Source: Gemmatimonadales bacterium
Lineage (GTDB): Bacteria; Gemmatimonadota; Gemmatimonadetes; Gemmatimonadales; GWC2-71-9
Assembly (NCBI GenBank): GCA_035538515.1
Contig: DATLKF010000032.1
Coordinates: 36,073 to 100,072 of the forward strand
Direction: 5' to 3'
DNA length: 64,000 nt
This document shows positions 391 to 57,201 of this stretch, one piece after another (the stretch's first letter is position 1; the number at the start of each line of letters is the position of its first letter). The notes below the pieces were generated by a model that made no database searches, was not told the DNA's origin, and was given only the letters and a program-made list of their open reading frames with translations. The position numbers were made by a program, and so were the translations under genes.

Positions 391-495
391 GTCGTCAGTC
401 GTCAGTCATCAGGTATCAGTTGCACGAATGCGCGGGCCGGGTTTCCTTTCTCCTCGCGAAACCCAACTGATGACTGAGCACTGACGACCGATCAC
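391..495. repeat. Palindromic heptad-array element, family D
   Basis: Left arm 391-421 is gtcgtca gtcgtca gtcatca ggtatca gtt. Right arm 465-495 (aactgatgactgagcactgacgaccgatcac) is its imperfect reverse complement. An inner hairpin pairs gggtttc 439-445 with gaaaccc 458-464. The element fills the spacer between the receptor stop (387-389) and the etfB ATG (499). Confidence 0.8.
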
Positions 496-498
496 TCC

Positions 499-1251
499 AT
501 GAAAATCGCTGTCTGCATCAAGCGCGTGCCCGACTCCGAAACGCGCGTCAAGATCGCCGCCGACGGCAAGTCGATCGACGAGGCCGGGGTCAAGTTCATT
601 CTCAATCCCTACGACGAGTTCGCGGTCGAAGAGGCGCTGCGCCAGAAGGAGCGCGCGGGCACGGGCGAAGTGGTCGTCGTGGCGCTCGGTCCCGCGGCCG
701 CGCAGGAGACGATCCGGACGGCGCTCGCGATGGGTGCGGATCGCGGCATCCTGCTCGAGACCAAGGGACTTCACCCCGATGGCTTGGAGACCGCGCGGGC
801 GCTCGCCGGGGAGCTCAAACATGCGGCGTTCGACTTGATCCTGTTCGGCAAGATGGCGATCGACGACTACAACCATCAGGTCGGTCCGATGGTGGCCGAG
901 CTGCTCGACTTGGCGTGCGTGACGACGGTGGCCCACCTCGAAGTTGCCGGCAACAAGGGGACCGCTGAGCGCGAGATCGAGGGCGGTGTGGAGGTGGTGG
1001 AGTTCTTGCTGCCAGCGGTGCTCACCACCGACAAGGGGCTCAACGAGCCGCGCTATCCCGCGCTCAAGGGCATCATGGCGGCGAAGAAAAAGCCGCTCGA
1101 GGTGAAGCCGACCGCGCCGGGCCCAGGGGCGCTGGAGATCGTCTCGCTCACGCTGCCGCCCGAGCGAAAGGCGGGAAAGATCGTGGGCGAGGGCTCCGCC
1201 GCGGTCCCCGAGCTGGTCCGTCTGCTGCGTGAAGAGGCCAAGGTCCTGTGA
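499..1251 (+). CDS. etfB: Electron transfer flavoprotein, beta subunit
   Basis: The N-terminus MKIAVCIKRVPDSETRVKI... and the full 250-aa pattern match ETF-beta. A GTGA overlap couples it to etfA. Confidence 0.92.
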   Translation: MKIAVCIKRVPDSETRVKIAADGKSIDEAGVKFILNPYDEFAVEEALRQKERAGTGEVVVVALGPAAAQETIRTALAMGADRGILLETKGLHPDGLETARALAGELKHAAFDLILFGKMAIDDYNHQVGPMVAELLDLACVTTVAHLEVAGNKGTAEREIEGGVEVVEFLLPAVLTTDKGLNEPRYPALKGIMAAKKKPLEVKPTAPGPGALEIVSLTLPPERKAGKIVGEGSAAVPELVRLLREEAKVL

Positions 1252-2231
1252 GCAACGTGCTCGCGGTGCTCGAGCAGCGGGACAGTACCCTTCGCAAGGT
1301 GTCGCACGAGGTGGTGACCGGGGCCCGCCGGCTCGCGGATGCTCTGGGAGCCTCCTCTACCGTGGACGCGCTCGTTGTCGCGGCAGCGGCGCCCGTGCGC
1401 GGCGTGGACCAGCTGGGAGGATTTGGGGCAGACCGCGTGGTCACGTTGACGAACGCAGCGTTCGCTCGCTATGCACCGGAGGGATACGCGCGCGCAGTCG
1501 CCGACCGCGCCACGGCGGGCGCCTATGGAGCCGTCGTGTTCGCGGCGAGCGCTACCGGGAAGGACCTCGCGCCTCGGGTGGCCGCCCGTCTCGGTCGCCC
1601 CCTCGTCCAGGAGATCACCGACGTGAGCGTCGCGGGCGGCGCCGTGATCGCCATCCGGCCGGTGTACGCGGACAAGGCGCTCCTCAAGATCAGAGTCGCT
1701 GGCACGCCGGCGGTCCTGTCGCTTCGCCCCAACGTGTTCACGCCGGTCCAGCGTCCCAAGGCGGGCGTGCAGGAGACGGCGACCGTGGACGGCGCGGCGG
1801 GCCGGGTGGTGGTGAAGGAGATCAAGGCCGCCCCCGCGGGCACTCTCGACGTCGCCGAGGCGCCGATCGTCGTGTCGGGCGGTCGCGGTCTCAAGGAGCC
1901 CGCCAACTTCAAGGTACTCGAGGCGCTGGCGGCGGCGTTCGGTGGTCGCGCTGCGGTGGGTGCGTCGCGGGCGGTGGTAGACGCCGGGTGGCGGCCGCAC
2001 GCGGACCAGGTGGGACAGACCGGGAAGACCGTCAGCCCCACGCTCTATGTGGCGGTGGGCGTTTCCGGCGCGATCCAGCATCTCGCGGGGATGCGGACGT
2101 CCAAGGTGATCGTGGCGATCAACAAGGACAAGGATGCCCCGATCTTCAAGGTGGCGGACTACGGGATCGTGGGCGATCTATTCGAGGTGGTGCCGAGACT
2201 GACGGAGGAGATCAAGAAGCTTCATGGGTAA
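1248..2231 (+). CDS. etfA: Electron transfer flavoprotein, alpha subunit
   Basis: The C-terminal FAD-binding region ...[34 protein letters not shown]... is present, and the gene directly follows etfB. Confidence 0.92.
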
Positions 2232-2234
2232 GCG

Positions 2235-3893
2235 GTGAGCGGTGCGCGGTTCGTCCCGGCTCACTTCCAGCCGCCGCTGCCGCTGGACAAAGTGCTGCTG
2301 CCGGTTGACGCTCCCGGTGCGGGCGACCGCATGGAGCTCGATGCCCTAATTGTCGGCGCGGGACCGGCGGGGCTCGCGTGCGCCATCGAGCTCGCCCAGC
2401 TCGCCCGGCGGGCCGGCCGCGAGGTGAACATCGGTGTGCTCGAGAAGGCCGAAGCGCTGGGCGAGCACTCGCTCTCTGGAGCGGTCGTCAACCCCCGCGC
2501 GTTCCGCGCGCTGTTCCCCGATCTCCAAGATCGAGATTTCCCGTTCCGCGCCCCCGTGACCAAGGAGAAGGTCTACCTCCTGACCGGCCAGCGCGCTCTC
2601 CGGATCCCCACGCCGCCCACCATGCACAACGCCGGCAACCAGATCGCCTCACTGTGCGAGATCGTACGCTGGTTGGGAGCGCGGGCGGAGGCCCTTGGGG
2701 TGAATCTCTTCACCGGGTTTCCCGCTGCGAGTCTGCTCGTCGAGCAGCGGCGCGTAGCGGGCGTGCGCACGGTTGCCACCGGGCTCGATCGCGATGGGCG
2801 AGGGCTCACGAACTACGTCGCGCCGAACGATCTCGTGGCGAAGGTCACCGTGCTCGCCGAGGGGACACGCGGCAGCCTGTCCCAGGCGTGGCTGGAATGG
2901 CAGGGAGTACCGTCCCAGAATCCCCAGATCTTCGCGCTGGGGGTGAAGGAGATCTGGGAGACCAGGCGCTCGCTCGACGCGATCGTGCATACGCTCGGCT
3001 GGCCACTCGGGAACGACGCCTTCGGCGGCAGCTTCATGTATCCGCTCGCACCCGACCTGGTGGCGCTCGGCCTGGTGGCGGGGCTCGACTACGGCGATGC
3101 GGCCTTCGACGTGCATGCGCGCTTCCAGGAAATGAAGCTGCACCCACTGTTCCGCCGTGTCCTCGAGGGCGGGGAGATGGTCGAGTGGGGCGCGAAGACG
3201 ATTCCCGAGGGCGGCTACTACTCGGTCCCGGCGCGCCGCTCGGGCGACGGCGTGGTGGTCGTGGGCGACGCTGCGGGTTTCGTGGACGTACCGTCGCTCA
3301 AGGGGATTCACTACGCGATGCAGTCGGGGATGTTCGCGGCGCGCGCGATCTTTCCGGCGCTCGACTCGGGCGACCCGTCCGCGGCGCGACTCGCTGAGTA
3401 CGACCGTCTGCTCGACGACTCGTACATCATGCAGGATCTGTATCGCACTCGGAACATGCGGTTGGCGTTCAAGGACGGGTTCTACCTGGGCGGCTTGAAG
3501 GCGGCGCTGATGACGTTGACCGGTGGCCGGTTCCCCGGCGACAAGATCGCCATGAAGCGCGATGCGGATGTGGCGCGAAGGCTAACCCCGGGCGCGAGCC
3601 CGGGGTCTACCCCTGACGGCCGTCTCACCTTCTCGAAGGTCGACGGCGTGTTTAAGTCCGGCAACGCCACCCGCGATACGATCCCCTCGCACCTCGGGGT
3701 GGGGCGCGACGTGCCGGCCGCGGTGGCGGAGTTCTACGCCCGGCTGTGTCCGGCCGGAGTGTACGAAGTGGCCGGTGGGGCCACGTTGCGCGTCAACGCG
3801 CCAAACTGCGTCGACTGCAAAGCCACGGATGTGCTGGGCCCGCGCTGGTTCCCGCGAGAGGGCGGCAGCGGTCCCAAGTACAAGCGAATGTGA
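2235..3893 (+). CDS. Electron transfer flavoprotein:quinone oxidoreductase (ETF-QO)
   Basis: FAD motif LIVGAGPAGLACA, a C-terminal ferredoxin-like Cys region (CPAGVY...NCVDCKATD) and the family C-terminus GGSGPKYKRM are present. GTG 2235 gives the longest ORF; ATG 2331 (MELDALIVGAG) is an alternative start. Confidence 0.9.
   Translation: MSGARFVPAHFQPPLPLDKVLLPVDAPGAGDRMELDALIVGAGPAGLACAIELAQLARRAGREVNIGVLEKAEALGEHSLSGAVVNPRAFRALFPDLQDRDFPFRAPVTKEKVYLLTGQRALRIPTPPTMHNAGNQIASLCEIVRWLGARAEALGVNLFTGFPAASLLVEQRRVAGVRTVATGLDRDGRGLTNYVAPNDLVAKVTVLAEGTRGSLSQAWLEWQGVPSQNPQIFALGVKEIWETRRSLDAIVHTLGWPLGNDAFGGSFMYPLAPDLVALGLVAGLDYGDAAFDVHARFQEMKLHPLFRRVLEGGEMVEWGAKTIPEGGYYSVPARRSGDGVVVVGDAAGFVDVPSLKGIHYAMQSGMFAARAIFPALDSGDPSAARLAEYDRLLDDSYIMQDLYRTRNMRLAFKDGFYLGGLKAALMTLTGGRFPGDKIAMKRDADVARRLTPGASPGSTPDGRLTFSKVDGVFKSGNATRDTIPSHLGVGRDVPAAVAEFYARLCPAGVYEVAGGATLRVNAPNCVDCKATDVLGPRWFPREGGSGPKYKRM
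3852..3893 (+). repeat. Direct repeat copy 1 (native 3' end of ETF-QO, PREGGSGPKYKRM*)
   Basis: ccgcgagagggcggcagcggtcccaagtacaagcgaatgtga; about 36/42 nt identical by eye to 4297-4338. Confidence 0.85.
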
Positions 3894-3894
3894 C

Positions 3895-4347: not shown

Positions 4348-4447
4348 TGTGGCGGGGGCGCTGCGTCAGCGCGCTGCTCCGACCCCCCATACGCTCGAAT
4401 TCCGCCGTCTGGCACCGCCTGATCCGGGTGGGCCATGCGGCACGCGC

Positions 4448-4481
4448 GTTGCACAGAAGCATCGGTTGCACAGAAGCATCG
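4448..4481 (+). repeat. Perfect tandem duplication, 2 x 17 bp (GTTGCACAGAAGCATCG)
   Basis: Read directly from the sequence. It lies 38 nt upstream of the ATG at 4519. Confidence 0.9.
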
Positions 4482-4518
4482 GCGGAAGTGGCCTCGCGGG
4501 ATCGGACTCTGGGGCGAT

Positions 4519-5208: not shown

Positions 5209-5209
5209 T

Positions 5210-6648: not shown

Positions 6649-7905
6649 TTAGAAGGGTGCCTCGGCGACGTGGTGCGGATCGTCGAGCAGCAGGGCCGCC
6701 AGCGTCTCCCCGGCGGCCACGACGGGCCGGTCCTCCGGGACGACGAGCAAGGCGTTCGCTCGGGCCATGGAGGTGAGGATGCCGGAGCCCTGCGGGCCCG
6801 TCAAGCGCGCGGCCAGCGCGCCGCCCGGCTCGGCCTGCACCACCGCCCGCAGGAAGTGCCGCAGCTTGGGACCGAGGGTGATCGGCTCCGCGACGCGCAC
6901 CGGCACGATACGCCGGTACGGCAGCCGGTGGCCCAGCAACCGCCGCATCGCCGGCCGCACGAACAGCTCGAACGTCACCATCACGCTGACCGGATTCCCC
7001 GGCAACCCGATCCACGGCTTGCCGTCGAGCACTCCGAACCCCACCGGCGCGCCCGGACGCATGGCGATGCGCCACAGCTTGATGTCGGCACCCAGCTCGG
7101 TGAGCACCTCCCGCACGAAGTCGTGCTCCCCGACGCTGATGCCGGCGGTCGTGACCAGCAGGTCGCTATCTTTCCGCCCCGCCTCCGCGAGCCGCTCCCG
7201 CAAGCTGTCTTTGGTATCGCGCGCTACCCCGAGGTCGATCGGAATGCCGCCCGTGCGGCGAATCAACCCGTGCAGCGTGTACGAATTGGAGGTCACGATC
7301 TTGCGCCCGGCGAGCACCTCGGCGGCACGATCCAGGTCCACGATCTCGTCTCCCGAGCCCATGAAGGCGACGCGCGGGGCACCGTGCACGAGCGGAGTGG
7401 CCTGTGCGATGGAAGCGAGCACGCCGAGCTGGGCGGGCGCGAGGGGCGTCCCGGCCGCCAGCACCACCACGCCCTTGCGGATGTCTTCGCCGCGATGCCG
7501 GACGTTCTTACCGGCGTCACGTCCCGTGACGACGGTGACGCGACCCGCGTCCGCGGGCTCGGTGTCCTCCTGTCGCACCACGGTGTCGGCCCCGGCGGGG
7601 AGGGGCGCGCCCGTGAAGATGCGGGTGACCTGTCCCGGACCGATGGGCTTTGTGGGGAATTGCCCCGCGGCAACGGCTTCGATCACGGTGAGCGTCACCT
7701 TGGCGTCGGGTCGGGCGCGCTCGACGTCGGCGGCGCGCGCCGCATAGCCGTCCATCCCCGAGTTGTCCCACGCGGGCAGATCGATGGGGCTGATCACATC
7801 CTCCGCGAGCACGCGGTCGAGCGCTTCGCGCAGTGAGCACCGCGCGGCGGGAAGGGGCTCGATGTGCTCGAGGATCAGCCGAGCCGCGGCTGCCGGTGTG
7901 AGCAC
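6649..7905 (-). CDS. moeA: Molybdopterin molybdenumtransferase
   Basis: It has the MoeA N/central/C-terminal pattern, including ...PAWDNSGMDGYA... and GLPGNPVSVMVTFELF. Confidence 0.9.
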   Translation of the reverse strand: MLTPAAAARLILEHIEPLPAARCSLREALDRVLAEDVISPIDLPAWDNSGMDGYAARAADVERARPDAKVTLTVIEAVAAGQFPTKPIGPGQVTRIFTGAPLPAGADTVVRQEDTEPADAGRVTVVTGRDAGKNVRHRGEDIRKGVVVLAAGTPLAPAQLGVLASIAQATPLVHGAPRVAFMGSGDEIVDLDRAAEVLAGRKIVTSNSYTLHGLIRRTGGIPIDLGVARDTKDSLRERLAEAGRKDSDLLVTTAGISVGEHDFVREVLTELGADIKLWRIAMRPGAPVGFGVLDGKPWIGLPGNPVSVMVTFELFVRPAMRRLLGHRLPYRRIVPVRVAEPITLGPKLRHFLRAVVQAEPGGALAARLTGPQGSGILTSMARANALLVVPEDRPVVAAGETLAALLLDDPHHVAEAPF

Positions 7906-7906
7906 G

Positions 7907-9021: not shown

Positions 9022-9022
9022 C

Positions 9023-10152: not shown

Positions 10153-10171
10153 GCGGCCCCGGCGGGATCCC

Positions 10172-10239
10172 GGGGTTCGGGGTTCGGGTCTCGGGGCTTG
10201 GGATGCACCCCCAGCCCCGAGCCCCGAGCCCCGAGCCCC
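10172..10239. repeat. Palindromic heptad-array element, family C (GGGG[C/T]TC units)
   Basis: Left arm 10172-10202 is ggggttc ggggttc gggtctc ggggctt ggg. The loop is atgca. Right arm 10208-10239 is cccccag ccccgag ccccgag ccccgag cccc. It sits in the 91-bp spacer between the PTPS-like stop and the fdhD ATG. Confidence 0.85.
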
Positions 10240-10243
10240 TCGA

Positions 10244-10663
10244 TCACCGTTCACCGAAGTATTCCGAATAGATAGTCGGCCCCTCTTGGATGCGCACCGC
10301 GTGCAGCGTCACGCCGTTGGGCAACCGCGGCGCAACCCGTTCCCACACCCACACTGCTAGCGCCTCGCCCGTCGCCAGCCGACCCCCGTCTCTGAACTCG
10401 GGGAGCGCCCGATTGATGCTTTGCCCGTCCAGCCGCCGTGTGATTTCCTCCGCCAAGACGTCGTCCAACAGCCCAAGCCGCATCACCCCACCTGCCTCCG
10501 CCACGAGGGGTCCCTTCACGGTGACCCGGCACTGATAGCGATGCCCGTGCTCCGCGGCGGCACGGCCGAACTCGCGCGCGTTCTGCGCGTCCGACCAATC
10601 CGCGCGCCGGATGCGGTGCGTCGCGCTAAACTCAACGATACGCGTAAGATAGCTGATCGGCAT
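10244..10663 (-). CDS. 6-pyruvoyl-tetrahydropterin synthase / QueD-family protein
   Basis: Three Zn-ligand His residues are present (FSATHRI..., ...EHGHRY) and the protein is 139 aa. The Cys of the QueD CxxxHGH motif is not present (AAAEHGH). Confidence 0.75.
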   Translation of the reverse strand: MPISYLTRIVEFSATHRIRRADWSDAQNAREFGRAAAEHGHRYQCRVTVKGPLVAEAGGVMRLGLLDDVLAEEITRRLDGQSINRALPEFRDGGRLATGEALAVWVWERVAPRLPNGVTLHAVRIQEGPTIYSEYFGER

Positions 10664-12367: not shown

Positions 12368-13089
12368 GCCACGCCGATCGTGGCCCAGCGGTGCGAGGTC
12401 CACTCGGTGATCGCCGCGGTGGGCGCCAGCACGCTGCTTCCCCCGCCTGACGGCGGCACCTTGTAAGAGAGCGGGTAGTGCAGCCGCCACAGCACCAGCC
12501 GGAAATCGCCGCGGATCGAGAGGCGCCGCGCGGGATACCAGCGCACGCCGGCGTTAGGCGAAAGGGTGAACTTGGTGCCGAACGTGTAGCCGCTCGAATC
12601 CTGGGCCAACGTGTTCGCGAACGCGACGCCGAGCGCGCCGCCGATGTAAGGCGCGAAGCCGCGCCACGTCTTGCGGCCCGTCAACACGAGCTGCAGGCCG
12701 GCGTCGGCGAGCACCACCCCGTTGTCGTACGGACCGCTGGTGCGCGCGGAATCCTTCTTGGGATCCACGACGAAGCTTTGGGTCCGCCCGTACGCGAGGC
12801 CGAGTGACGCGCCGATGGCCCCGAATTGGGCGTCGTAGCGGATCCCCGCGGTCGCACCATCGGCGAGGCCGACGCCCAGGCTCCCCCGGCCGCCGCTCAG
12901 GTATCCGAACGCCAGCACGCCGACGGCTCCGCGCCGGATATCGCGATAGGGGGAGTGGCCGGGATCGTAGCCCACTTGAGCGCCGGACGGTTGGACGGTG
13001 GGACCGACGGACAGTAGCACCGTTGCACCGAGTGCGATCCAGCCACGGGTCCACCGTCCGACCGTCCGACCGTCCGACCGTCCGTCCAT
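12355..13089 (-). CDS. Small outer-membrane beta-barrel protein (hypothetical)
   Basis: The predicted signal peptide is MDGRSDGRTVGRWTRGWIALGATVLLSVGPTVQPSGA/QV. It has an alternating amphipathic strand pattern and ends ...ATIGVAWTF. The ATG overlaps the gpmI stop (ATGA). Confidence 0.6.
   Translation of the reverse strand: MDGRSDGRTVGRWTRGWIALGATVLLSVGPTVQPSGAQVGYDPGHSPYRDIRRGAVGVLAFGYLSGGRGSLGVGLADGATAGIRYDAQFGAIGASLGLAYGRTQSFVVDPKKDSARTSGPYDNGVVLADAGLQLVLTGRKTWRGFAPYIGGALGVAFANTLAQDSSGYTFGTKFTLSPNAGVRWYPARRLSIRGDFRLVLWRLHYPLSYKVPPSGGGSSVLAPTAAITEWTSHRWATIGVAWTF
12983..13087. repeat. Palindromic octad-array element, family B ([A/G]GTCGGAC units)
   Basis: Arm 12983-13015 is ccggacggt tggacggt gggaccga cggacagt. 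Arm 13054-13087 is (ccgtccga)x3 ccgtccgtcc, its imperfect reverse complement. A 38-nt spacer separates them. The element lies inside the first ~35 codons of the OMP gene. Confidence 0.8.
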
Positions 13090-14657
13090 CAGTCCGTCTC
13101 CCTGAGATCTCGCCCCGTCATCTCCGGCGGCGGCTCCACACCGAGCAATCGGAGCACCGTGGGCCCCACGTCGCACAGCGCGCCGCCGTGGCGCAGCGGG
13201 CCGCGCACGTCGTCCCCAACGAGGCAGAACGGTACCGGATTGGTGGTGTGGGCCGTGTGAGGGCCGTCCGTCGTGGGATCGATCATCAGCTCGCAATTAC
13301 CGTGGTCCGCCGTGACGAGCAGGGTGGCGCCGCGCCGCTCGGCGCTGCGTAAGACGCGCTCCAGGCAGCGATCCACCGTTTCCACCGCTTGGATGGCGGC
13401 GCGTAGTACCCCGGAGTGGCCGACCATGTCCCCGTTGGCGTAGTTGCACAGGATGAAGTCGTGGTGCCCCGCCTCGATCGCGCGGCACAGCACGTCGGTC
13501 ACGCCCGGGGCGCTCATTTCCGGCATGAGATCGTAGGTCGCGACCTTTTGAGACGGCACCAGCTGCCGCTCCTCGCCCGGGTACGGCGTCTCGACCCCAC
13601 CGTTGAAGAAGTAGGTGACGTGGGCGTATTTCTCCGTCTCGGCGGTCCGGAACATCGTCTTGCCCCGCTCCGACAGCACCTGCGCGACGATCTGCGAGAG
13701 CACCATCGGGCCGAACGCCATCGGGAATGGGAAGGTCGCGTCGTACTGTGTCATCGTCACGAGATCGACGGCCGGCCGAGCCCCGGTGTCGAAACCGTCG
13801 AATCCTTCGAGCGCGAGCGCGCGCACGATCTGGCGCATGCGGTCGGCTCGGAAGTTGACGCAGAAGATACCGTCTCCATCCCGGATGCGCGGCGTGCCGG
13901 TGATCACGCGCGGCTTCACGAACTCGTCCGTCTCGCCGGCCTCGTACGCGCGACGGACGGCGGTAATCGGGTTCGGCGCGGGCTCGCCCACGCCGTGTAC
14001 CATCGCGTCGTACGCGATCTTGGTGCGCTCCCAGCGCTTGTCGCGGTCCATGGCATAGTAGCGACCGACGACGGTGGAAATGCATATGGGGGCTCGGGGA
14101 TCGGGGCTCGGGGCTCGGGCCCCGCCACCCCCGATCCCCTCTACCAGCTCCTGCATGAACGCCAGCCCCGACTGCGGCGCCGTGTCGCGCCCGTCGAGCC
14201 ACGCGTGGATCGCGACCGGCAGGTCGTGCTCGCGGCCGAGCTCGACGGCGGCCACGAGGTGCTGATCGAGCGCGTGCACGCCGCCCGTGCCGATCAGCCC
14301 GCACAGGTGGAGCGTGCCGCCGCGCCGCTTCACGTCGGCGCACAACTGGACTAAGGGCGGAAGGCGGAAGAACTCGCCCGACTGGATTGCCTGCGAGATG
14401 CGCACCATGTCCTGCGGCACGACGCGACCCGCGCCCAGGTTCAGGTGTCCCACCTCGCTGTTGCCGATCTGTCCTTGGGGGAGTCCCACGGCGAGACCCG
14501 ACGCGTCGAGCAGTGTGCGCGGTGCTTTGGCCCACAGACGATGCCAGGTAGGTGTCGCGCCGAGCTCGACGGCGTTGCCCTCCCGGCCGGGGCGGAAGCC
14601 CCAGCCGTCGAGCACGATCAGGACGACCGGGGTGCGCGGCCCATTCTGCTTTGCCAT
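13089..14657 (-). CDS. gpmI: 2,3-bisphosphoglycerate-independent phosphoglycerate mutase
   Basis: It carries VVLIVLDGWG, GNSEVGHLNLGAGR, GRYYAMDRDKRWER and TADHGN. The protein is 522 aa. Confidence 0.92.
   Translation of the reverse strand: MAKQNGPRTPVVLIVLDGWGFRPGREGNAVELGATPTWHRLWAKAPRTLLDASGLAVGLPQGQIGNSEVGHLNLGAGRVVPQDMVRISQAIQSGEFFRLPPLVQLCADVKRRGGTLHLCGLIGTGGVHALDQHLVAAVELGREHDLPVAIHAWLDGRDTAPQSGLAFMQELVEGIGGGGARAPSPDPRAPICISTVVGRYYAMDRDKRWERTKIAYDAMVHGVGEPAPNPITAVRRAYEAGETDEFVKPRVITGTPRIRDGDGIFCVNFRADRMRQIVRALALEGFDGFDTGARPAVDLVTMTQYDATFPFPMAFGPMVLSQIVAQVLSERGKTMFRTAETEKYAHVTYFFNGGVETPYPGEERQLVPSQKVATYDLMPEMSAPGVTDVLCRAIEAGHHDFILCNYANGDMVGHSGVLRAAIQAVETVDRCLERVLRSAERRGATLLVTADHGNCELMIDPTTDGPHTAHTTNPVPFCLVGDDVRGPLRHGGALCDVGPTVLRLLGVEPPPEMTGRDLRETD
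14088..14139. repeat. Family C heptad tract inside gpmI
   Basis: gggggctc ggggatc ggggctc ggggctc ggg occupies 14088-14119. It is followed by ccccgatcccc (14129-14139), which is complementary to ggggatcgggg (14096-14106). It is read in frame as GGGGARAPSPDPRAP. Confidence 0.8.
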
Positions 14658-31928: not shown

Positions 31929-31929
31929 C

Positions 31930-32015
31930 AACGCGGAACGCGGAAGTCGGAATGCGGAACAGGCGGCTCGAGGTCCGCTCGAATGTTCCGCGTTCGGCAT
32001 TCCGCGTTCCGACTT
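31930..32015. repeat. Palindromic heptad-array element, family A copy 1
   Basis: The left arm is cgcggaa cgcggaa gtcggaa tgcggaa ca (31932-31961). The spacer is 22 nt. The right arm is tg ttccgcg ttcggca ttccgcg ttccgac tt (31984-32015). About 24/30 arm positions are complementary by eye. It starts 1 nt after the MATE TGA and ends at the next gene start. Confidence 0.85.
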
Positions 32016-32019
32016 GACC

Positions 32020-35850: not shown

Positions 35851-36763
35851 CCGACAGTCGGAAGGTCGGACAGTCGGACGAGAAGGCCAAACGGTCGCGG
35901 GCGAAAGCTTGCTTGTCCGCTATGTCAACTTCGTCAAGCTGCCGCACACAGTATTCGCGTTACCGTTCGCATTGCTCGGTGTGATCGTTGCTTCGCGTGA
36001 GGCGGCGGTGACGTGGCGGATGCTCGGGCTCGTCGTTCTCGCGTTCACGTGTGCCCGGTTCGTTGCGCTCGGGTTCAACCGCATCGCGGATCGCGAGCTC
36101 GACGCGCGGAACCCGCGCACCAGCGGCCGTGAGCTCCCCAGCGGGCGCCTCACCCTGACGCAGGCCTGGGTCGCGGTGGCCGCGGCGGCGGCGCTGTTTC
36201 TGGTGAGCGCCTGGGCGCTGAACCCGCTGTGCTTCGCCCTCGCCCCCATCGCGCTGCTCTTCGTCGCGGCATACAGCTACACCAAGCGGTTCACGTCCTG
36301 GTCGCATCTGTGGCTCGGCCTCGCGGACGGCATCGCGACGCCGGCAGGATATCTCGCGGTGACCGGCCGCTGGGGCGATCCCTGGTGGCTGCTTCCTGTG
36401 GGCGCGCTCGCCGTCACGTTCTGGGTTGGTGGCTTCGACGTGTTCTACGCGCTCCCCGACGAGACCTTCGACCGTGCCGAGCGGCTCGCGTCGCTCGTGG
36501 TGCGGCTGGGGCAGGCGCGGGCCATCCGGGTCGCGAAGCTGCTGCACGGGGTCGCGCTGGTCGCGCTTGTCGTATTCGGGATCGGGGCGGGTTTGGGTGT
36601 GGCCTATTACGCCGGCGTGGCGGCCGGCGCCGCGCTCATCATCTGGGAGCACCAGCTGGTCCGGCCGGGAGACCTGCGCCGGCTGAATGCGGCGTTCTTC
36701 ACCGCGAACGGAATCGTGAGCGTGGTCGTGTTCCTGGGAGCGTTGGTGGATAGAGTGATATGA
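35840..36763 (+). CDS. ubiA: UbiA-family aromatic prenyltransferase (4-hydroxybenzoate / dihydroxynaphthoate type)
   Basis: It carries VKLPHTVFALPFALLG, the Asp-rich motif NRIADRELD and 8-9 TM helices. TTG 35840 gives the longest ORF; TTG 35909 is an alternative that would leave the family B tract noncoding. Confidence 0.85.
   Translation: MSSDRQSEGRTVGREGQTVAGESLLVRYVNFVKLPHTVFALPFALLGVIVASREAAVTWRMLGLVVLAFTCARFVALGFNRIADRELDARNPRTSGRELPSGRLTLTQAWVAVAAAAALFLVSAWALNPLCFALAPIALLFVAAYSYTKRFTSWSHLWLGLADGIATPAGYLAVTGRWGDPWWLLPVGALAVTFWVGGFDVFYALPDETFDRAERLASLVVRLGQARAIRVAKLLHGVALVALVVFGIGAGLGVAYYAGVAAGAALIIWEHQLVRPGDLRRLNAAFFTANGIVSVVVFLGALVDRVI
35851..35880. repeat. Family B octad tract (single arm)
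   Basis: ccgac agtcggaa ggtcggac agtcggac g lies directly after the ubiD TGA (35848-35850). No convincing inverted partner was seen nearby. Confidence 0.7.
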
Positions 36764-36851
36764 AACGCGGAACGCGGAAGTCGGAACGCGGAGCAGACGA
36801 GCGAGTGCCGGTGGCGCCTGTTCCGCGTTCCCCGTTCCGCGTTCCGCGTTC
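36763..36851. repeat. Palindromic heptad-array element, family A copy 2
   Basis: The left arm is cgcggaa cgcggaa gtcggaa cgcggag ca (36766-36795). The spacer is 22 nt and unrelated to that of copy 1. The right arm is tg ttccgcg ttccccg ttccgcg ttccgcg ttc (36819-36851). About 26/30 positions are complementary. It abuts the ubiA TGA. Confidence 0.85.
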
Positions 36852-36917
36852 TCTTCCGCCCCCGAGACCGCCAGCGCATCCCAAGCGCTCTCCCACGCCC
36901 AATCGACGCGGGCACTG

Positions 36918-37508
36918 ATGGCCAAGCTTCCGCTGATCCTCGCCATCACCGGCGCCTCGGGGGTCACGTACGGCGTGCGGCTGCTCGAGGTGCTCGCCAT
37001 GCACCAGGTGCCGACCTGGCTGATGATCTCGAGCCACGGCTGGCGGCTGCTCACGGAAGAGTGCGCCATCAAAGACGACCGTGAGCTGAAGAAGGCCACG
37101 GGGGGCGACTGGGCGAGCGTGCGGGTGTTCGACGACAAAGACCGCGGGGCCGAGCCGGCGTCCGGATCGGCCAGGAGTGCGGGAATGGTGATTTGCCCCT
37201 GCTCCATGGGCACGGTCGCTGCGATCGCCCATGGCACGAGCCGCAGCCTCATCGAGCGCGCGGCCGACGTGGTGCTCAAGGAGCACCGCCCGCTCGTCCT
37301 AGTGCCCCGCGAGACCCCGCTATCGCTCGTGCACCTTCGCAATCTCACTCTCGCCACCGAGGCGGGCGCCGTGGTGCTGCCGGCGGCGCCGGGGTTCTAT
37401 CACAAGCCCCAGCAAATACGCGACCTTGTGGACTTCGTGGTGCAGCGGGTACTGGACCACCTTGGGGTCGAGATCAGTCTGGTCAAGCGCTGGGAAGGCA
37501 ATAAGTAG
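36918..37508 (+). CDS. ubiX: Flavin prenyltransferase UbiX
   Basis: It carries LAITGASGVTYG, the ...ICPCSMGTVAAIAHG... motif and 196 aa. Confidence 0.9.
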   Translation: MAKLPLILAITGASGVTYGVRLLEVLAMHQVPTWLMISSHGWRLLTEECAIKDDRELKKATGGDWASVRVFDDKDRGAEPASGSARSAGMVICPCSMGTVAAIAHGTSRSLIERAADVVLKEHRPLVLVPRETPLSLVHLRNLTLATEAGAVVLPAAPGFYHKPQQIRDLVDFVVQRVLDHLGVEISLVKRWEGNK

Positions 37509-37511: not shown

Positions 37512-37535
37512 CACGACGCCACGACGCCACGTGAC
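37512..37535. repeat. Short tandem octad tract (CACGACGC CACGACGC CACGTGAC)
   Basis: Read directly from the sequence, in the 38-nt ubiX-to-next-gene spacer. Confidence 0.7.
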
Positions 37536-44904: not shown

Positions 44905-44957
44905 GTGATGCTCCTGCCGAAAGATAGAACCCGCACTACGCTAACGGATCTGTGGTG

Positions 44958-45015
44958 TTTCGCGCGATCAGTAGTTTCGCGCCATCAGTAGGGGCGCAGC
45001 ATGCTGCGCCCCTAC
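44958..45015. repeat. 2 x 17-bp direct repeat followed by a 28-bp perfect palindrome
   Basis: The repeat is TTTCGCGCGATCAGTAG (44958-44974) / TTTCGCGCCATCAGTAG (44975-44991). The palindrome gtaggggcgcagcatgctgcgcccctac spans 44988-45015. Confidence 0.85.
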
Positions 45016-46315: not shown

Positions 46316-47434
46316 ATGCCACAACCGACCGCCGTCAAGTGTCTGGTGGTAGACGACGAGCCCCGGCTTCGCCGGGTGCTCGTGCGGCTGCTCGAGGGTG
46401 AGGGATTCACCTGCTCGGAGGCAGGGTCCGGCACCGAGGCGCTCGAGATACTGCAGCACGACCCCGTGCCGCTCGTCATCTCCGATCTGCGAATGCCGCA
46501 GATGGATGGCGTCACCTTGCTGCGTGAGATCCTGGCGCGCTGGCCGGACACCGCGGTGATCGTCGTGACCGCCGTGGCGGAGGTGGAGAGCGCGGTCGCG
46601 TGCCTGCAGCAGGGTGCGCTCGACTACGTCGCCAAGCCCTTCCATCTGGATGAAGTGCGCGCCCGCGTGATGCAGGCGCTCGACAAGCGCCGCCTCAAGT
46701 TGGAAGTCGAGGACTACAAGCACAATCTGGAGCTGCGCGTCCAGCAGCAGGCGCGGCGCATCGAAGAGCTGTCGCTCGAGCGGCTCCAGGCGCTGGTGTT
46801 CTTCCTGGAGGAGAAGGATCCCTACACCCGCGGCCACTCGGTGCGGGTCGCCGACTACTCGGCGCGCATCGGCCGCATGATGGGTCTGCCGCAGACGACG
46901 ATGGACTTGATCGCCCTTGGCGCCGAGCTCCATGACATCGGGAAGATCGGCGTGAGCGAAGCCGTGCTCCATAAGGAGGGCAAGCTCAGCGACGGCGAGT
47001 ACCGGCACATCATGGAGCACCCCGTGATCGGCGCGCGCATCCTGGCGCCGCTGATGCGCGACGTGCCCGCGGCCCTCGCTATCGTGCGGTCCCACCACGA
47101 GCGCCTCGACGGCAAGGGGTTCCCCGACGGTCTCAGGGGAGACGCGATCCCGCTCGAGGTGCGGGTCGTCACCGTCGCCGACTCGTTCGATGCCATGACC
47201 AGTGTCCGCCCTTACCGGCCGGCGCTGTCGGTGCCCAAGGCGCTGCAGGAGCTCGAAGAGGGCAAGGGGAGCCAGTTCCACGCCCCGGCCGTCGACGCCT
47301 TCATGGCCGCTTTTCCCGATCGCACGGCGCTCCCCGTCTCCACACCGGAAATCAAACCGCTGCGTCTACCCGTCCCTGTTGCCGAGGCGCTCCAGAGCGG
47401 CGGCCGCGGGGGCCGCACCTCCACACCGAATTAA
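46316..47434 (+). CDS. Response regulator with HD-GYP domain (putative c-di-GMP phosphodiesterase)
   Basis: The receiver domain reads KCLVVDDEP...LVISDLRMPQMDG. The HD-GYP domain reads GHSVRVADY, LHDIGKIG and HHERLDGKGFPDGL. Confidence 0.85.
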   Translation: MPQPTAVKCLVVDDEPRLRRVLVRLLEGEGFTCSEAGSGTEALEILQHDPVPLVISDLRMPQMDGVTLLREILARWPDTAVIVVTAVAEVESAVACLQQGALDYVAKPFHLDEVRARVMQALDKRRLKLEVEDYKHNLELRVQQQARRIEELSLERLQALVFFLEEKDPYTRGHSVRVADYSARIGRMMGLPQTTMDLIALGAELHDIGKIGVSEAVLHKEGKLSDGEYRHIMEHPVIGARILAPLMRDVPAALAIVRSHHERLDGKGFPDGLRGDAIPLEVRVVTVADSFDAMTSVRPYRPALSVPKALQELEEGKGSQFHAPAVDAFMAAFPDRTALPVSTPEIKPLRLPVPVAEALQSGGRGGRTSTPN

Positions 47435-47444
47435 ATTGGTGCGC

Positions 47445-48865
47445 ATGACCGGCACCTTAATGGTCGGTGTCTCGGGGATCCGCGGCATCGTAGGCAAGGA
47501 CCTGACCGATGAAATCGTCGCCCGCTACGCCCGGGCGTTCGGCCGGTGGGCCAAGGGAAGGGCGGGGGGGGCGCGCAATCCGCTCGTGGTGGTCGGCCGC
47601 GACGCGCGGGAATCCGGAGCGGCGTTCGAGCGGGCCGTGACCGACGCGTTGCGGTCCGTGCGGTGCGACGTCGTGCAGCTAGGCGTCGTCCCCACCCCCA
47701 CCGTGCAGCTAGCGGTCGAGCATCACCACGCAGGCGGCGGGATCGCCATCACGGCCAGCCACAACCCCATCGAGTGGAACGCCCTGAAATTCATCGGGCC
47801 GGACGGAATTTTCCTCGACGGCAAGGACGGAAGGCGGGTGCTGGAGCTGGTGGGAGAGGACGGGGGAGGACGGGGAAGGACGGGGGAGGCTAGGACCGAT
47901 GACCAGGCGATCGCGCGGCACCTCGCGGCCGTGCTGGAGCTTCCGGCGGTGGACGTCGCGGGGGTCCGGGCCCGCAAGCTCACCGTGGCGCTCGACACGG
48001 TGCGGGGAGCGGGAGGCCCGGTGATGCGGGAGCTCCTGGAGCGGCTTGGCTGCCGCGTGGAGGGCATCAACCTCGAGACCGATGGCCAGTTTCCCCGGCC
48101 CCCGGAGCCGGTGCCCGAGAACCTGGGTGACCTGGCCGCCCTCGTGCAGCGGACCGGTGCGGTGTTCGGCATCGCGGTCGATCCGGACGTGGATCGCCTG
48201 GCGATCGTGGACGACCGGGGGATGCCGATTGGGGAGGACTACACGCTTGCCTTCGCCGTTCGAGCGGTCTTCGGTGTCGGAGCGTCGGACAGTCGGACGG
48301 TCGGACTGCAAAGCGGTGGACTGTCCGACCGTCCGACCGACCGAAGAACCGTCGTCTGCAACCTCTCGACCAGCCTCGTCGTCGAAGACGCCGCCCGTGA
48401 GTTCGGCGCCGAGGTCGTCCGGACGCCCGTCGGCGAAGTGCACGTCGCCCGCAAGATCCTCGCACTCGGGGCGCCGATCGGGGGGGAGGGGAACGGGGGC
48501 GTCATGTATCCCGCGCTGCACGTCGGTCGGGATGCCCCGGTCGCGGCGGCGTTGCTGCTGACGCTGCTCGCCCGGTCGGGAACGCGAGTGAGCGAGCTCG
48601 TAGCCGCGGCCCCGCGCTATGTGATCGTCAAAGCAAAGTTGGAACGGGGAACGCGGAACGCGGAACGGGGAATGGAAGAGATCTATGCCGCTTTGCGTCG
48701 GCGGTTCCCCGAGGCGAGCGTCGACACGCAGGACGGGTTGCGGCTCGCCTGGTCGGACCGCTGGCTGCACGTGCGGCCGTCCAACACCGAGCCGATCATC
48801 CGGCTGATCGCCGAGGCGCCGATCCGCGCCGATGCGGAACGACTGATCGAGGAGGGGCGCCGCCC

Positions 48866-48881: not shown

Positions 48882-50707
<1,826 letters not shown>

Positions 50708-50827
50708 GAACGCGGAAGTCGGAACGCGGAATGCGGAACGGCCGGTCGGCCGTCGATCGGCAACGAAAGCCCACGGGCCAGAAACGCGAAGGCTCTGTTC
50801 CGCGTTCCGACTTGCGCGTTCCGCGTT
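50708..50827. repeat. Palindromic heptad-array element, family A copy 3
   Basis: The left arm is cgcggaa gtcggaa cgcggaa tgcggaa cgg (50711-50741). The spacer is 53 nt. The right arm is tg ttccgcg ttccgac ttgcgcg ttccgcg tt (50796-50827). It abuts the glmS TGA and is followed by an SD gggagggg and the dtd GTG. Confidence 0.85.
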
Positions 50828-50845
50828 AGGGAGGGGCGGGGCGGC

Positions 50846-53471: not shown

Positions 53472-53475
53472 TATA

Positions 53476-54969: not shown

Positions 54970-55040
54970 ACGACGGCGTGCGGGGTACTGGGTGCGTGGC
55001 CCGTTGCTCGCGTCTCAGCCCGCCCCGACATTTCGCGCCC

Positions 55041-57086
55041 ATGCGCGTCGCGCTTACCGCTTGCGCCGTCGGGATCCTCGTGTGTCCCGAGTCCGCGCGG
55101 GCGCAGGCGTGGAACTCGGAGGGCGCGCTGAGCCTGGCGCGCCGGGCGATCCTGCGGCGCAGCGGCGCCGTGGCCGACAGCTCGCTGCACGATTACAAGG
55201 CCCAGGCCCATGGGTTCCTCTTCTTTCTGGGCGCCTTCGGTCAGGGGCTTGCCGACCCTCCTCGCCTCGTCAAGGCCGATCAGCTGGAGCTGGAAGTGTA
55301 CTGGAAGGCGCCCGCCAGCAGCAAGCAGCGGGTCGTCGGCTGGCGCGACCAGGCGCTGTTGCCCACCGACATCAACTATCATCGCGACCACCTCGGCATC
55401 ATCCAAAACAACTTCGGGGCCGCCATCCGACTGGGCGAGGGCGACGAAGTGCGCGACGTGCCCCACCCCCTCGCGCCCGCCGGTCCGGCGCTGTACGACT
55501 TCGCCCTGGGAGATACGACGACGATCGTGTTCCCCGGGCGCGAAGTGCGGGTCGTGGCGCTGCGCGTCCGACCGAAGGATTTCGGCCTCCCTCGCATCGT
55601 CGGCACCTTGTACGTGGACGCCGAGAGCGCCGACCTCGTGCGCATGGCCTTCAATTTCACGCCGCGGTCCTACCTCGATCCCGAGCTCGAGGACGTAAGC
55701 ATCGTGCTCGACAATGCGCTCGAGGAGCAGCGCTACTGGCTCCCGTACCGCCAGGAGATCGAGATCCGGCGCCGTGCCACCTGGCTGGATGTGCCGGCGC
55801 GCGGGATCATCCGCGCACGCTGGGAGATCGACGGCTACGCGTTGAACCTGGGGCTCGCGAACAGCTGGTTCGCGGGAGAAGAAATCACGTTCCTTCCGAA
55901 GGCGGAGCGCGATTCGTTTCCGTGGAAGGAGCCGCTGGCGGCCGCCCTGCAGGACGTGGCCGAGCCCGTGCGGCAGAACGACCTGGCGCGAGTGCGGGCG
56001 CAGGTGGAGGAGATCGCCGGCCGGCGCGCTCTCACGGGACTCAAGGCCCGGCGCCTCGGCGTCCGCGGCGTCTCAGACCTGCTGCACGCCAACCGTGTCG
56101 AGGGGCTGACGCCGGGCGCGGGGATCGTGCTGCGCGGCGGGGGCGAGCGCCGCGAGCTGCGGGCACGAGGGAGCTACGGCTTCGGCGACCGGCGCCCCAA
56201 GGGCGCGCTCAGCGCAGTCGACCGCCAGGGACGGGGTGCGCTCGAGGCCGGCGTGTATCGCGAGGTGCGCGACGTCGGGGACGCGCCGGTCATCGCCCCG
56301 CTCCTGAACTCGTTTTCGTCCCAGGAATTCGGGCTCGACTACGGGGACTATTACTTGGCGGACGGTGGGCGCCTGACCTACCGCCACGGGGTGGGCGCGC
56401 GCAGCGAATGGCGCGTGACGGTGGGCCGCGAGTCCATCGGGTCGCTTCCGATCGTCGCCGTCCCGGCGAACGGCCGCTTCCGGCCCAATCCCCCTCTCGG
56501 CGGCACCGGCGTAGACCTCGTGCAGCTGGGGCTCGAGCGCAAGAGCGAGGGCTTCGCCGTGCTGCGCGACCTGCACTACGAGCTGTTGCTCGAGGGAGGG
56601 CGTCGGGACGGGGGCGTGGACTTCCTGAGGCTCTCGACCGTCGGACACGTGTTGGTTCCAGTCGGCGCGACGCGAGTGCTGGTCCGCGCTCAGGGCGGCG
56701 TGGCGAGCGCGAACTTGCCGGCGCACCGCGCGTTCGTGCTCGGCGGGCGCGGCACGCTCCTGGGCGATGAGTTTCGCCGCTGGGGCGGCGCCCGCATGGC
56801 GCTGGTCCACGTCGAATGGCGCGTGCCGGTCCCGTTCGTCTCGCTCGGGATCGGTCCGTACGCGCGCACGCCGCGCACCCTCACGGTCGCGCCCTATGCG
56901 GCGCTCGGCGGGACCGGCCGACCGCTCGCTGATACACCCTGGGCCGCCACACCAGGTGTCCGGGTCACGGTTGGGCTCGGGTTCGAGTGGCTGGGTGTGT
57001 TCCGATGGGACGTGGGGTTCGGCACGACCACGCATCGCGTGGCGGTGGCGTTCGACGTGGCGCGCGATTTTTGGTCGATACTGTAA
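55041..57086 (+). CDS. Large outer-membrane protein, hypothetical (possibly surface-antigen/Omp85-like barrel)
   Basis: The signal peptide is MRVALTACAVGILVCPESARAQA. The beta-rich C-terminal third reads ...VTVGLGFEWLGVFRWDVGF... The family was not recognised with confidence. Confidence 0.5.
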   Translation: MRVALTACAVGILVCPESARAQAWNSEGALSLARRAILRRSGAVADSSLHDYKAQAHGFLFFLGAFGQGLADPPRLVKADQLELEVYWKAPASSKQRVVGWRDQALLPTDINYHRDHLGIIQNNFGAAIRLGEGDEVRDVPHPLAPAGPALYDFALGDTTTIVFPGREVRVVALRVRPKDFGLPRIVGTLYVDAESADLVRMAFNFTPRSYLDPELEDVSIVLDNALEEQRYWLPYRQEIEIRRRATWLDVPARGIIRARWEIDGYALNLGLANSWFAGEEITFLPKAERDSFPWKEPLAAALQDVAEPVRQNDLARVRAQVEEIAGRRALTGLKARRLGVRGVSDLLHANRVEGLTPGAGIVLRGGGERRELRARGSYGFGDRRPKGALSAVDRQGRGALEAGVYREVRDVGDAPVIAPLLNSFSSQEFGLDYGDYYLADGGRLTYRHGVGARSEWRVTVGRESIGSLPIVAVPANGRFRPNPPLGGTGVDLVQLGLERKSEGFAVLRDLHYELLLEGGRRDGGVDFLRLSTVGHVLVPVGATRVLVRAQGGVASANLPAHRAFVLGGRGTLLGDEFRRWGGARMALVHVEWRVPVPFVSLGIGPYARTPRTLTVAPYAALGGTGRPLADTPWAATPGVRVTVGLGFEWLGVFRWDVGFGTTTHRVAVAFDVARDFWSIL

Positions 57087-57090
57087 GGCA

Positions 57091-57201
57091 GGTTGGGGAG
57101 GCGAGATACGAGATGCGAGATGCGGGATGGGTGGTAAGGGGCCGCAATCACGCTCTCCTATCCCGGCTCCAACCTCCCCTAACCTCCCCAACCTCCCTAC
57201 C
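57091..57201. repeat. Composite palindromic repeat element, family F
   Basis: The outer perfect 11-bp stem pairs ggttggggagg (57091-57101) with cctccccaacc (57183-57193). Inside are four heptads cgagata cgagatg cgagatg cgggatg (57102-57129) and the C-rich decamers aacctcccct aacctcccc aacctccct (57171-57198). It fills the spacer before the gspE-REC gene. Confidence 0.8.

Follow-up and report, generated by a model that had tools for sequence, protein, structure and literature searches.

The 64,000-nucleotide stretch of contig DATLKF010000032.1 analysed here (the window) comes from a Gemmatimonadales bacterium. It has a G+C content of 69% and carries housekeeping operons that include genes for electron transfer flavoprotein (ETF), molybdenum cofactor, iPGM, IMPDH and ubiE-ubiD-ubiA-ubiX; a phospho-sugar mutase is also encoded, with glmS-dtd-maf. 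Dispersed between and within these genes are arrays of short tandem units, many of them arranged as palindromes. An arm consists of three to five tandem copies of a 7-10 nt unit, and in the paired form two such arms in opposite orientation flank a spacer of 4-126 nt that is not conserved. These palindromes built from long simple-sequence repeats (SSRs) are real and form a lineage-wide class, to which single arrays with no inverted partner also belong. A sequence-only reading of the window had placed thirteen such tracts in it, all of which are found where it put them; the short array at 2232-2252 was absent from its list. The elements in the window are as follows, with folding energies for those that fold.

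389-497: hairpin D, with arms at 391-412 and 467-488 of GTCGTCA-type heptads; -49.3 kcal/mol, z = -5.9. It fills its junction, starting 1 nt past the TAG at 387-389 and ending 3 nt before the ETF-beta ATG at 499.
2232-2252, plus strand: three heptads (GCGGTGA GCGGTGC GCGGTTC) forming a short single array that abuts the ETF-alpha stop (TAA, 2229-2231) and overlaps the putative start of the ETF-QO gene.
10166-10245: hairpin C1, GGGGYTC heptads; -65.4 kcal/mol, z = -3.8. Its start is 4 nt past the stop of the minus-strand PTPS gene (10244-10663), and it is upstream of the probable FdhD start at ~10153.
12977-13091: hairpin B1, GGTCGGAC octads; -71.5 kcal/mol, z = -4.6. It starts 1 nt past the iPGM stop (13089-13091, minus strand).
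14088-14139: hairpin C2, in frame within iPGM and encoding EGIGGGGARAPSPDPRAP; -42.2 kcal/mol, z = -3.6.
31929-32016: hairpin A1, CGCGGAA/GTCGGAA/TGCGGAA heptads; -55.1 kcal/mol, z = -6.3. It runs from 1-2 nt past the MatE stop (31926-31928) up to where the SAM hydroxide adenosyltransferase gene starts.
35851-35880, plus strand: single family B array CAGTCGGA AGGTCGGA CAGTCGGA, directly 3' of the UbiD stop (35848-35850); it has no partner and does not fold.
36764-36851: hairpin A2, 0 nt past the UbiA stop (36761-36763); -64.4 kcal/mol, z = -8.0.
37512-37535, plus strand: single family G array, 2.5 copies of CACGACGC, starting 3 nt past the UbiX stop (37506-37508); does not fold.
47852-47889, plus strand: decamer array, 3.8 copies of GGGGGAGGAC, in frame in the mutase and encoding GEDGGGRGRTGEA; does not fold.
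48262-48350: hairpin B2, in frame in the mutase; -53.2 kcal/mol, z = -5.1.
48638-48675, plus strand: single family A array, 4.6 copies of GGAACGC, in frame in the mutase; does not fold.
50708-50827: hairpin A3, 0 nt past the glmS stop (50705-50707) and 18 nt ahead of the dtd start (GTG, 50846); -68.5 kcal/mol, z = -5.8.
57091-57201: family F, a hairpin of 9-mers (GGTTGGGGAGG with AACCTCCCC x3) within which four CGAGATR heptads form a nested array; -54.1 kcal/mol, z = -2.3. It starts 4 nt past a stop at 57084-57086 and ends 11 nt ahead of a T2SSE-response-regulator gene.

Family A is represented by three full copies and one half copy, family B by two full and one half, and family C by two. The design of arm, spacer and inverted arm that had been attributed to every tract is clean in eight of them (D, C1, C2, B1, B2, A1, A2 and A3, with spacers of 0-66 nt), whereas four others are single arrays and family F, described earlier as having CGAGAT[A/G] units plus a further sequence, departs from it as listed above. 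The family G array had been counted as three units and has 2.5. The contrast drawn between conserved arms and unrelated spacers in family A is borne out, as the loops of A1, A2 and A3 are 23, 25 and 57 nt long and cannot be aligned. Only the family C units contain a run of three or more G residues; in families A, B, D and G the longest run, where there is one, is GG.

The elements stand out clearly in a systematic search. A hairpin detector (exact seed of 7, stem of at least 18 nt, complementarity of at least 78%, loop of up to 130 nt) finds eleven hairpins in the window, and the seven best have arms periodic at 7 or 8 nt; in 40 dinucleotide-preserving shuffles the means are 2.9 hairpins and 0.05 periodic ones. 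Among the longest inverted repeats, I1-I6 (six of the top seven) and I8 coincide with tracts of the earlier list, and I7, at 59517-59634, lies outside them. Tandem Repeats Finder reports arrays of 2.5-4.7 copies with periods of 7, 8 and 10. Those of period 7 are at 390-412, 10171-10239, 14089-14119, 31930-31960/31985-32011, 36764-36792/36820-36851, 48641-48672, 50708-50740/50797-50827 and 57101-57129, those of period 8 are at 12985-13084, 35853-35879, 37512-37531 and 48276-48344, and the one of period 10 is at 47852-47889. The full elements fold as RNA at -42 to -71 kcal/mol (z = -3.6 to -8.0), and no 3' arm in the window is followed by a T-run. The periodic arms had been expected to permit pairing in shifted register, and alternative inverted repeats of this kind do exist (I4/I14/I17, I6/I21 and I8/I11/I19).

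Searches of the window against known features were negative. Rfam at the gathering threshold gives no match in the 64 kb, a tRNA search of the window found none, and Pfam scans of ~60 of its open reading frames (ORFs) detected no transposase, reverse transcriptase or REP-associated tyrosine transposase (RAYT), the type of gene that the sequence-only reading had suggested looking for. A CRISPR array was considered and rejected, as there are neither spacers nor regular interspacing.

The same architecture recurs widely in related genomes. The relatives of the mutase are exclusively from metagenome-assembled genomes (MAGs) of Gemmatimonadales/Gemmatimonadota, at 55-75% identity, and we assembled a comparison set of 80 related MAG loci from these groups (1.26 Mb, labelled from L001 onwards). 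They contain 158 long hairpins, 61 of which have periodic arms; these are spread over 34 loci and are built from many different units, which supports the earlier proposal that one architecture is shared by unrelated unit sequences. The window and loci together have 229 arrays, and 7 is the commonest long repeat period (99 arrays; periods 8, 9 and 10 have 38, 11 and 5, respectively). An inverted partner is present within 170 nt for 69 of the 153 arrays of period 7 or more, compared with 2 of 152 in a displaced control. In the 67 periodic hairpins of the combined set the stem has a median length of 25 nt (18-41), the loop one of 33 nt (4-126), and the paired stem holds a median of ~3.4 units. 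Single linkage of the units at no more than one mismatch merged 86 heptamer arrays into one cluster, an uninformative grouping.

The positions of the elements follow simple rules. All nine intergenic tracts of the earlier list, read by hand, start 0-5 nt past a stop codon, exactly as had been claimed, and the other four lie inside ORFs, three in the mutase and one in iPGM. In the combined set an edge of the element is within 12 nt of a stop codon for 35 of the 67 hairpins, compared with 1.1 under random placement, and elements occupy 19 of 181 convergent junctions (~10%), 23 of 559 co-directional junctions (4%) and 6 of 191 divergent junctions (3%), with 16 hairpins apparently intragenic; these counts are approximate, as the gene calls were made with a crude heuristic based on G+C at third codon positions. 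The usual site is the 3' end of a gene, 0-10 nt past the stop codon, at co-directional or convergent junctions, and an occasional site is in frame within surface loops of enzymes. We note that the longest ORFs of FdhD and UbiA traverse C1 and the single family B array, respectively (at 10153-10254 and 35840-35957), so that gene callers choosing the longest ORF would give both proteins false, repeat-encoded N-terminal extensions.

A second rule concerns polarity. The 5' arm is G-rich and the 3' arm C-rich in 63 of 67 informative arrays and, because the element is a palindrome, this holds on whichever strand it is read. Single arrays beside stop codons have the same bias, with the sense strand G-rich in twelve and the opposite strand in two. 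A scan of metagenomes for CGGAANN-type arrays (loci L081-L200; the figures cover the matches listed) gives a similar picture, with 47 arrays following the stop of a long ORF on the purine-rich strand and 18 on the other, compared with 15.7 at random. The arrays listed (CGGAATT, CGGAATG, CGGAAAG, CGGAAGC and others) are in contigs of 35-72% GC and reach 116-158 nt in the longest examples (L096 and L183), and heptamer arrays with a CGGAANN core are widespread outside the Gemmatimonadota. Inverted partners accompany 19 of the 51 listed arrays in contigs of at least 66% GC, compared with 6 of 82 below that value; in this the paired hairpin form, concentrated in high-GC contigs, differs from direct long SSRs. 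A rare exception to the G-arm-first rule is in L154 (295-397), where a family A-like pair is divergent, with the C arm first and the arrays ~55-65 nt apart.

Comparison of orthologous junctions shows that the elements evolve in place and in concert. One example is the junction of glmS and dtd. A 4-nt overlap of the two genes, (G/A)TGA, is found in 15 related loci, and elsewhere there are gaps of 1-13 nt, a 49-nt purine-rich tract (L003), or full hairpins of 84-138 nt with four units, which are AACGCGG in the window, AATGCGG in L005, GTTGCAC in L021 and CACGACGC in L002. The window and L005 elements have a common right flank and, judged from their alignment, are probably a single insertion in which the units have come to differ by one base throughout. 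In L009 the 31-nt gap (~6768-6798) is a direct octamer array, 3.5 copies of CGGCCGGA, with no inverted arm, and this may represent an early stage in the birth of an element. Other loci of the same order have short-stem, small-loop hairpins after glmS, some with a T-run.

A second example is the UbiA junction, where A2 has orthologous copies in L003, L005 and further genomes. A periodic hairpin lies 0-9 nt downstream of the UbiA stop in 11 of 24 genomes scored, and in L005, which was aligned separately; the junction is tight and element-free in a more distant clade. The units at this one site are AACGCGG, AATGCGG, ATTGCGG, GAGGGAC, GTGGGGA, CGGTGCG and a 9-mer, and the two arms have the identical unit in 8 of the 11 genomes and are one unit position apart in the other three (L025, L013 and L056). 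Among seven UbiA orthologues 90.3% of cells are paired, both sides have changed in 12 of 31 pairs, and there are 27 double-change cells compared with 11.6 in shuffles (a value reached in 0 of 500); sliding the register cuts pairing to 30-48%. As we chose the register and the sequences are related, this result shows that complementarity is kept and is not by itself a sign of selection. The CGGTGCG hairpin, which follows UbiA in L004, may be compared with the heptads at 2232-2252 in the window. We also note that the 66-nt spacer between A2 and the UbiX start (36852-36917) is C-rich and G-poor. Both L003 and L005 retain this spacer, though not the A2 loop, and it might serve as a rut-like element or a leader.

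The clearest instance of change in place comes from L042, L043 and L044, in which the flanks are 94-97% identical and the arms only 54-83% identical. Nearly all copies of the 3' arm unit are CTCGCGA in L042, CTCGTGA in L043 and CTCCCGA in L044, the 5' arms are complementary to them in each case, and the loop is still common to L042 and L044 (76% identity). The units have therefore changed at the same site, in all copies and in both arms, far faster than the flanks, and their number has changed too, with 5' arms of 38, 52 and 60 nt in L042, L043 and L044, respectively. At the UbiX junction, the CACGACGC array is in the same place in L003 and L004, and other genomes have anything from a 7-nt overlap to a 13-nt gap, with two outliers of 92 and 491 nt. 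The junction occupied by family F has a clean 9-mer hairpin in L021. CTAG(G/C)TTTG recurs in the ~50-nt spacer upstream of the T2SSE-response-regulator gene in about 15 loci among L001-L031, some of which also have a TTGACA-like -35 box after it; in the window and L021 the F hairpin takes its place.

The copies within genes leave the reading frames intact, and they map to loops and linkers. All three tracts in the mutase are inter-domain. The decamer tract lies between domains I and II, has orthologous arrays in L002 and L003, and is kept as protein in five close relatives in an alignment of 81 orthologues. The domain II-III linker is hypervariable in the same alignment (~7-40 aa) and hosts periodic hairpins of differing units in the window, L003, L009 and L036; B2 is an insertion of ~14-19 aa relative to the orthologues and PDB 1wqa (19 aa relative to 1wqa). 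The (GGAACGC)n array encodes ERGTRNAER and is common to nine orthologues. In iPGM, the C2 site is a loop with ~9 extra residues relative to PDB 5vpu. The peptides read from the sequence are Gly/Arg/Glu-rich for the G arm and Pro/Ser/Ala/Arg-rich for the C arm. The best solved relative of the mutase is the archaeal-type phospho-sugar mutase 1wqa and not bacterial GlmM. In the region 47202-47445, the longest 'GlmM' ORF has 81 codons ahead of its first Pfam domain and runs into the response-regulator/HD gene that precedes it, and the true start is probably near 47445.

The sequence-only reading could place this design in no described repeat class, and in this it was mistaken, as the same architecture has been catalogued twice, each time with no explanation. 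Aklujkar et al. (2009; PMC2700814) described three classes of putative sites for binding by global regulators in Geobacter metallireducens, paired on opposite strands with variable spacing: 24 pairs of four tandem octamers, 21 of three tandem 8-9-mers and 8 of five tandem heptamers, one heptamer pair lying between proB and proA. A further element, Gmet_H4, is present as 49 unpaired 4 x GGACCGG copies within and between genes. The authors proposed that IHF/HU or unknown regulators bind these sites, found insertion sequence (IS) elements at a fixed distance from the class 1 sites, and noted their absence from G. sulfurreducens (PMC2700814). The likeness is considerable, with several lineage-specific families per genome, three to five tandem units of 7-9 nt, opposite-strand pairs and unpaired intragenic copies. 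The differences are in the phylum and the units, and the Geobacter interpretation as regulator sites came with no tests. That paper gave no analysis of stop distance, arm polarity, orthologous turnover or in-frame status, and our comparison with it is by description and not by sequence.

The second catalogue is that of Rehm et al. (2015; PMC4692102), who reported tandem heptamers of the GGGAATC type in Xanthomonas and of the GGGGA(C/T)T type in Nostoc, favouring four units. The Xanthomonas arrays are 89-93% intergenic, chiefly between aligned ORFs and seldom between divergent ones, with average distances of 28 nt to the upstream ORF and 160 nt to the ORF downstream, and there are 70-75 convergent opposite-strand pairs per genome. 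Length and sequence vary among close species as the type is kept, and the arrays are transcribed, with no function found (PMC4692102). Family C of the window fits the GGGNATC motif. Xanthomonas differs in having one G-tract family per genome, explained by G-quadruplexes, whereas the window has six or more families in its 64 kb, mostly with no G-tracts; the Gemmatimonadales elements also add octamers, 9-mers and 10-mers, positions 0-10 nt past the stop, and several in-frame coding insertions. All four traits of the Geobacter and Xanthomonas paired arrays (unit number, opposite-strand pairing, dispersed families and location at ORF 3' ends) are found in the elements described here, and what is new is the phylum and the many unit families. 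A literature search for palindromic repeats in Gemmatimonadetes found nothing specific, and one on REPs, tmRNA and stop codons gave no result among the papers searched.

Other repeat classes are more distant relations. Repetitive extragenic palindromes (REPs), with their composite (BIME) and paired (REPIN) forms, occur as inverted pairs that form long hairpins and as singlets, in lineage-specific families linked to RAYTs, whose genes they often flank. They sit at gene 3' ends and have been proposed or shown to stabilise the upstream mRNA and aid Rho-dependent termination (PMC2817692). The elements here are similarly abundant palindromic 3'-end repeats with hairpin pairs, singlets and lineage-specific families, but a REP is an imperfect palindrome of 20-40 nt with a GT(A/G)G head, and the present arms are headless and made of tandem units that are not themselves palindromic; in Xanthomonas, too, the REPs (GTAGGAGCGC...) are distinct from the heptamer arrays. 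Rickettsia palindromic elements (RPEs) are inserted in frame in housekeeping genes at positions compatible with protein folding, which resembles the four tracts in loops of the mutase and iPGM. An RPE, however, belongs to a conserved family of ~100-150 bp with a conserved peptide, and here there are 21-90 nt of tandem units with a peptide that mirrors the unit. The analogies with REP/BIME and RPE drawn by the sequence-only reading are reasonable, given the location at gene 3' ends and the in-frame coding insertions, whereas that with MITEs, miniature transposable elements with inverted repeats, is weak, since copies of the same family have no conserved core and there is no target-site duplication. 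Long SSRs, including the TAACTGA repeats of Beggiatoaceae and the STRR sequences of Calothrix, are alike in being intergenic, in having slippage proposed as their origin and in that period 7 is commonest here; papers citing Mrazek et al. (2007) attribute to that study a heptanucleotide excess among prokaryotic long SSRs. They differ in being mostly described as direct arrays, and the TAACTGA arrays are upstream of start codons.

What then are these elements? The explanation that we favour, at somewhat less than even confidence, is that they are palindromes generated from long SSRs by slippage and template switching, and that they would act as REP-type RNA stem-loops at the 3' ends of genes. 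Arrays would expand, contract and homogenise in place through replication slippage or unequal exchange among units, and the complementarity of the arms would be kept by intramolecular template switching, either as quasi-palindrome correction or as conversion from arm to arm. Quasi-palindrome correction is an established mutational pathway in Escherichia coli. Acting together, slippage and template switching would let the unit drift in concert in both arms as the site and the architecture persist, and the elements would be tolerated only where coding frame and promoter both stay unbroken. Transcribed along with the upstream gene, they would form very stable RNA stem-loops of 18-41 bp with no U-tract, which could bar 3' exonucleases and serve as intercistronic processing or attenuation sites in the manner of REP/BIME elements; their closeness to the stop codon would also let them influence termination or coupling. 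In high-GC species, terminators have longer stems and shorter U-tracts (PMC13613805). A REP-like role in RNA is suggested as the most economical function by the location and stability of the elements, and it is the least certain part of the proposal.

Several observations weigh against this explanation. First, the transcripts fold equally well in sense and antisense (20 and 19 elements, respectively), and the stem mismatches (29 G-U and 34 A-C) show no sense-strand enrichment of G-U; this lack of asymmetry means that there is no positive sign of selection on the sense RNA. Second, the same units appear at non-orthologous sites, with family A at three sites in the window and CACGACGC after UbiX in the window but as a full hairpin after glmS in L002, and such recurrence at unrelated sites is not predicted by purely local birth. 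Third, slippage and template switching leave the strict G-arm-first rule and the sense-strand G-richness of the single arrays unexplained. The stop-proximal arm does not significantly exceed the distal arm in purity (17 vs 12, p = 0.28). Fourth, family A is constrained at the nucleotide level. The family A arms at the UbiA junction are ~95% identical in the window, L003 and L005, genomes in which the mutase is only 65-73% identical, and at this junction the loop varies in both sequence and length, and the coding flank has diverged further than the arms have. In the mutase, the nine codons of the family A array are identical in 78% of pairs with the same residue, compared with 53% gene-wide, a fraction matched by only 0.25% of 9-codon windows, and 33% of the array codons have A or T in the third position, compared with 17% elsewhere. 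Family A appears either to be read as a sequence by some factor or to be continually converted from other copies, and both fit this constraint better than slippage and drift alone do. The polarity, the conservation of family A, the recurrence of units and the lack of a sense signature together keep alive explanations that invoke a factor reading the sequence or an enzyme mobilising it, and make an enzyme that writes the arrays possible.

The first of these alternatives, that the arrays are binding sites for a DNA- or RNA-binding protein that reads their sequence, with the hairpin secondary, we regard as unlikely. The candidates would be a nucleoid protein or global regulator (IHF/HU, as for Geobacter) or an RNA-binding protein with one 7-nt unit per domain; the proposal of global-regulator binding by Aklujkar et al. 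and the binding of one heptamer each by cold-shock proteins (MacGregor et al.) provide precedents. A reader of this kind accounts well for family A, which is constrained even where it is unpaired and coding and whose arms at UbiA persist as loop and flanks diverge, for the retention of about four units among orthologues, as in Xanthomonas, and for single arrays with sense-strand polarity after stop codons. It is much less easily reconciled with the remaining families, as six or more units in 64 kb, and more across genomes, would demand many specificities, periods of 7, 8, 9 and 10 nt are all present, and rapid turnover of the unit between near-identical genomes is hard to square with a conserved reader. 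No candidate protein emerged from the analysis.

Similarly unlikely is that these are non-autonomous mobile elements (REPIN-, MITE- or PATE-like) copied by an enzyme encoded elsewhere, such as an HUH/Y1 transposase that makes no duplication. The unit families are indeed dispersed, with family A at three junctions and one intragenic site in 64 kb, and the same families are at other sites in other genomes and metagenome contigs, with family A arms conserved between genomes. The glmS-dtd junction has clean filled and empty states, with the xTGA overlap duplicated on either side of the insert, and IS elements in Geobacter insert at a fixed distance from such sites. Yet selection could account for the xTGA duplication, as neither gene can do without its codons, and over the 67 elements the direct repeats at the flanks have a length of 3.13 compared with 3.12 in the control, that is, no target-site duplication. 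Within a family the loops have neither sequence nor length in common, which means that elements are not copied whole; dozens of unrelated units are alike in architecture alone; and one orthologous site whose loop is shared shows the unit changing in situ. The ~60 ORFs of the window also include no transposase or RAYT.

A dedicated, templated activity that writes the arrays, in place of passive slippage, is in our estimate improbable. A candidate writer would be a telomerase-like or reverse-transcriptase/primase enzyme that adds G-rich repeats of 7-10 nt to 3' ends at a break or nick, after which rejoining would leave two head-to-head G-strand arrays flanking arbitrary filler. Such an activity would account for the G-arm-first rule, for the same unit in each pair of arms, for unrelated spacers within a family and for the length of about four units. 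In a milder version, a family-specific reader or convertase would hold the sequence of family A constant, even in a coding region.

We consider it equally improbable that the elements are ordinary intrinsic (Rho-independent) terminators. They are stable, GC-rich hairpins past stop codons and are enriched at convergent junctions. Nevertheless, the 3' arms are not followed by a T-run, and with stems of 18-41 bp and loops that reach 126 nt they do not resemble the hairpins of short stem and small loop that follow glmS in other loci. Many of the elements separate genes whose counterparts in related genomes overlap by 4 nt, which places them inside operons, and four tracts are within coding sequence.

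An origin as G-quadruplex or i-motif elements, in which four units would supply four G-tracts as Rehm et al. suggested, is very improbable: family C (GGGGCTC/GGGGATC x4) conforms to both the GGGNATC motif and the four-unit rule, and the G-rich strand is consistently 5', but most units lack a run of three or more G residues (e.g. CGCGGAA, GTCGGAC, GTCGTCA, GTTGCAC, GAGAAGT and TAGCTAT), and in the paired elements the hairpin competes with any quadruplex. Chance or assembly artefact has a negligible likelihood, even though short-read assemblers can create or collapse repeats and palindromes, as the architecture is found again in 34 of the 80 MAG loci, which are independent and come from many projects, and also in metagenome contigs, orthologous copies covary at the same junction in independent assemblies, host-gene reading frames are intact, and there are seven periodic hairpins where shuffles give 0.05.

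Two further repeats in the window fall outside the heptad class and may be binding sites for regulators. One is a perfect 17-nt direct repeat, two copies of GTTGCACAGAAGCATCG, at the start of a GGDEF gene (4448-4482), and the other is a 17-nt direct repeat, two copies of GTTTCGCGCNATCAGTA, between two minus-strand genes (44957-44991).

With the Gemmatimonadota, paired tandem-heptamer arrays are now known from a third phylum, after Proteobacteria (Xanthomonas) and Desulfobacterota (Geobacter), and the comparative evidence makes their nature directly testable. They are tolerated as in-frame insertions in essential enzymes, and at a practical level they break or confuse assemblies, gene callers and protein alignments. 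If they are selfish by-products of replication, they would offer a clean natural system for the study of slippage and quasi-palindrome correction. If it is true that they shape mRNA ends or operon coupling, gene expression in an abundant phylum of the soil would include a major layer that annotation has missed.

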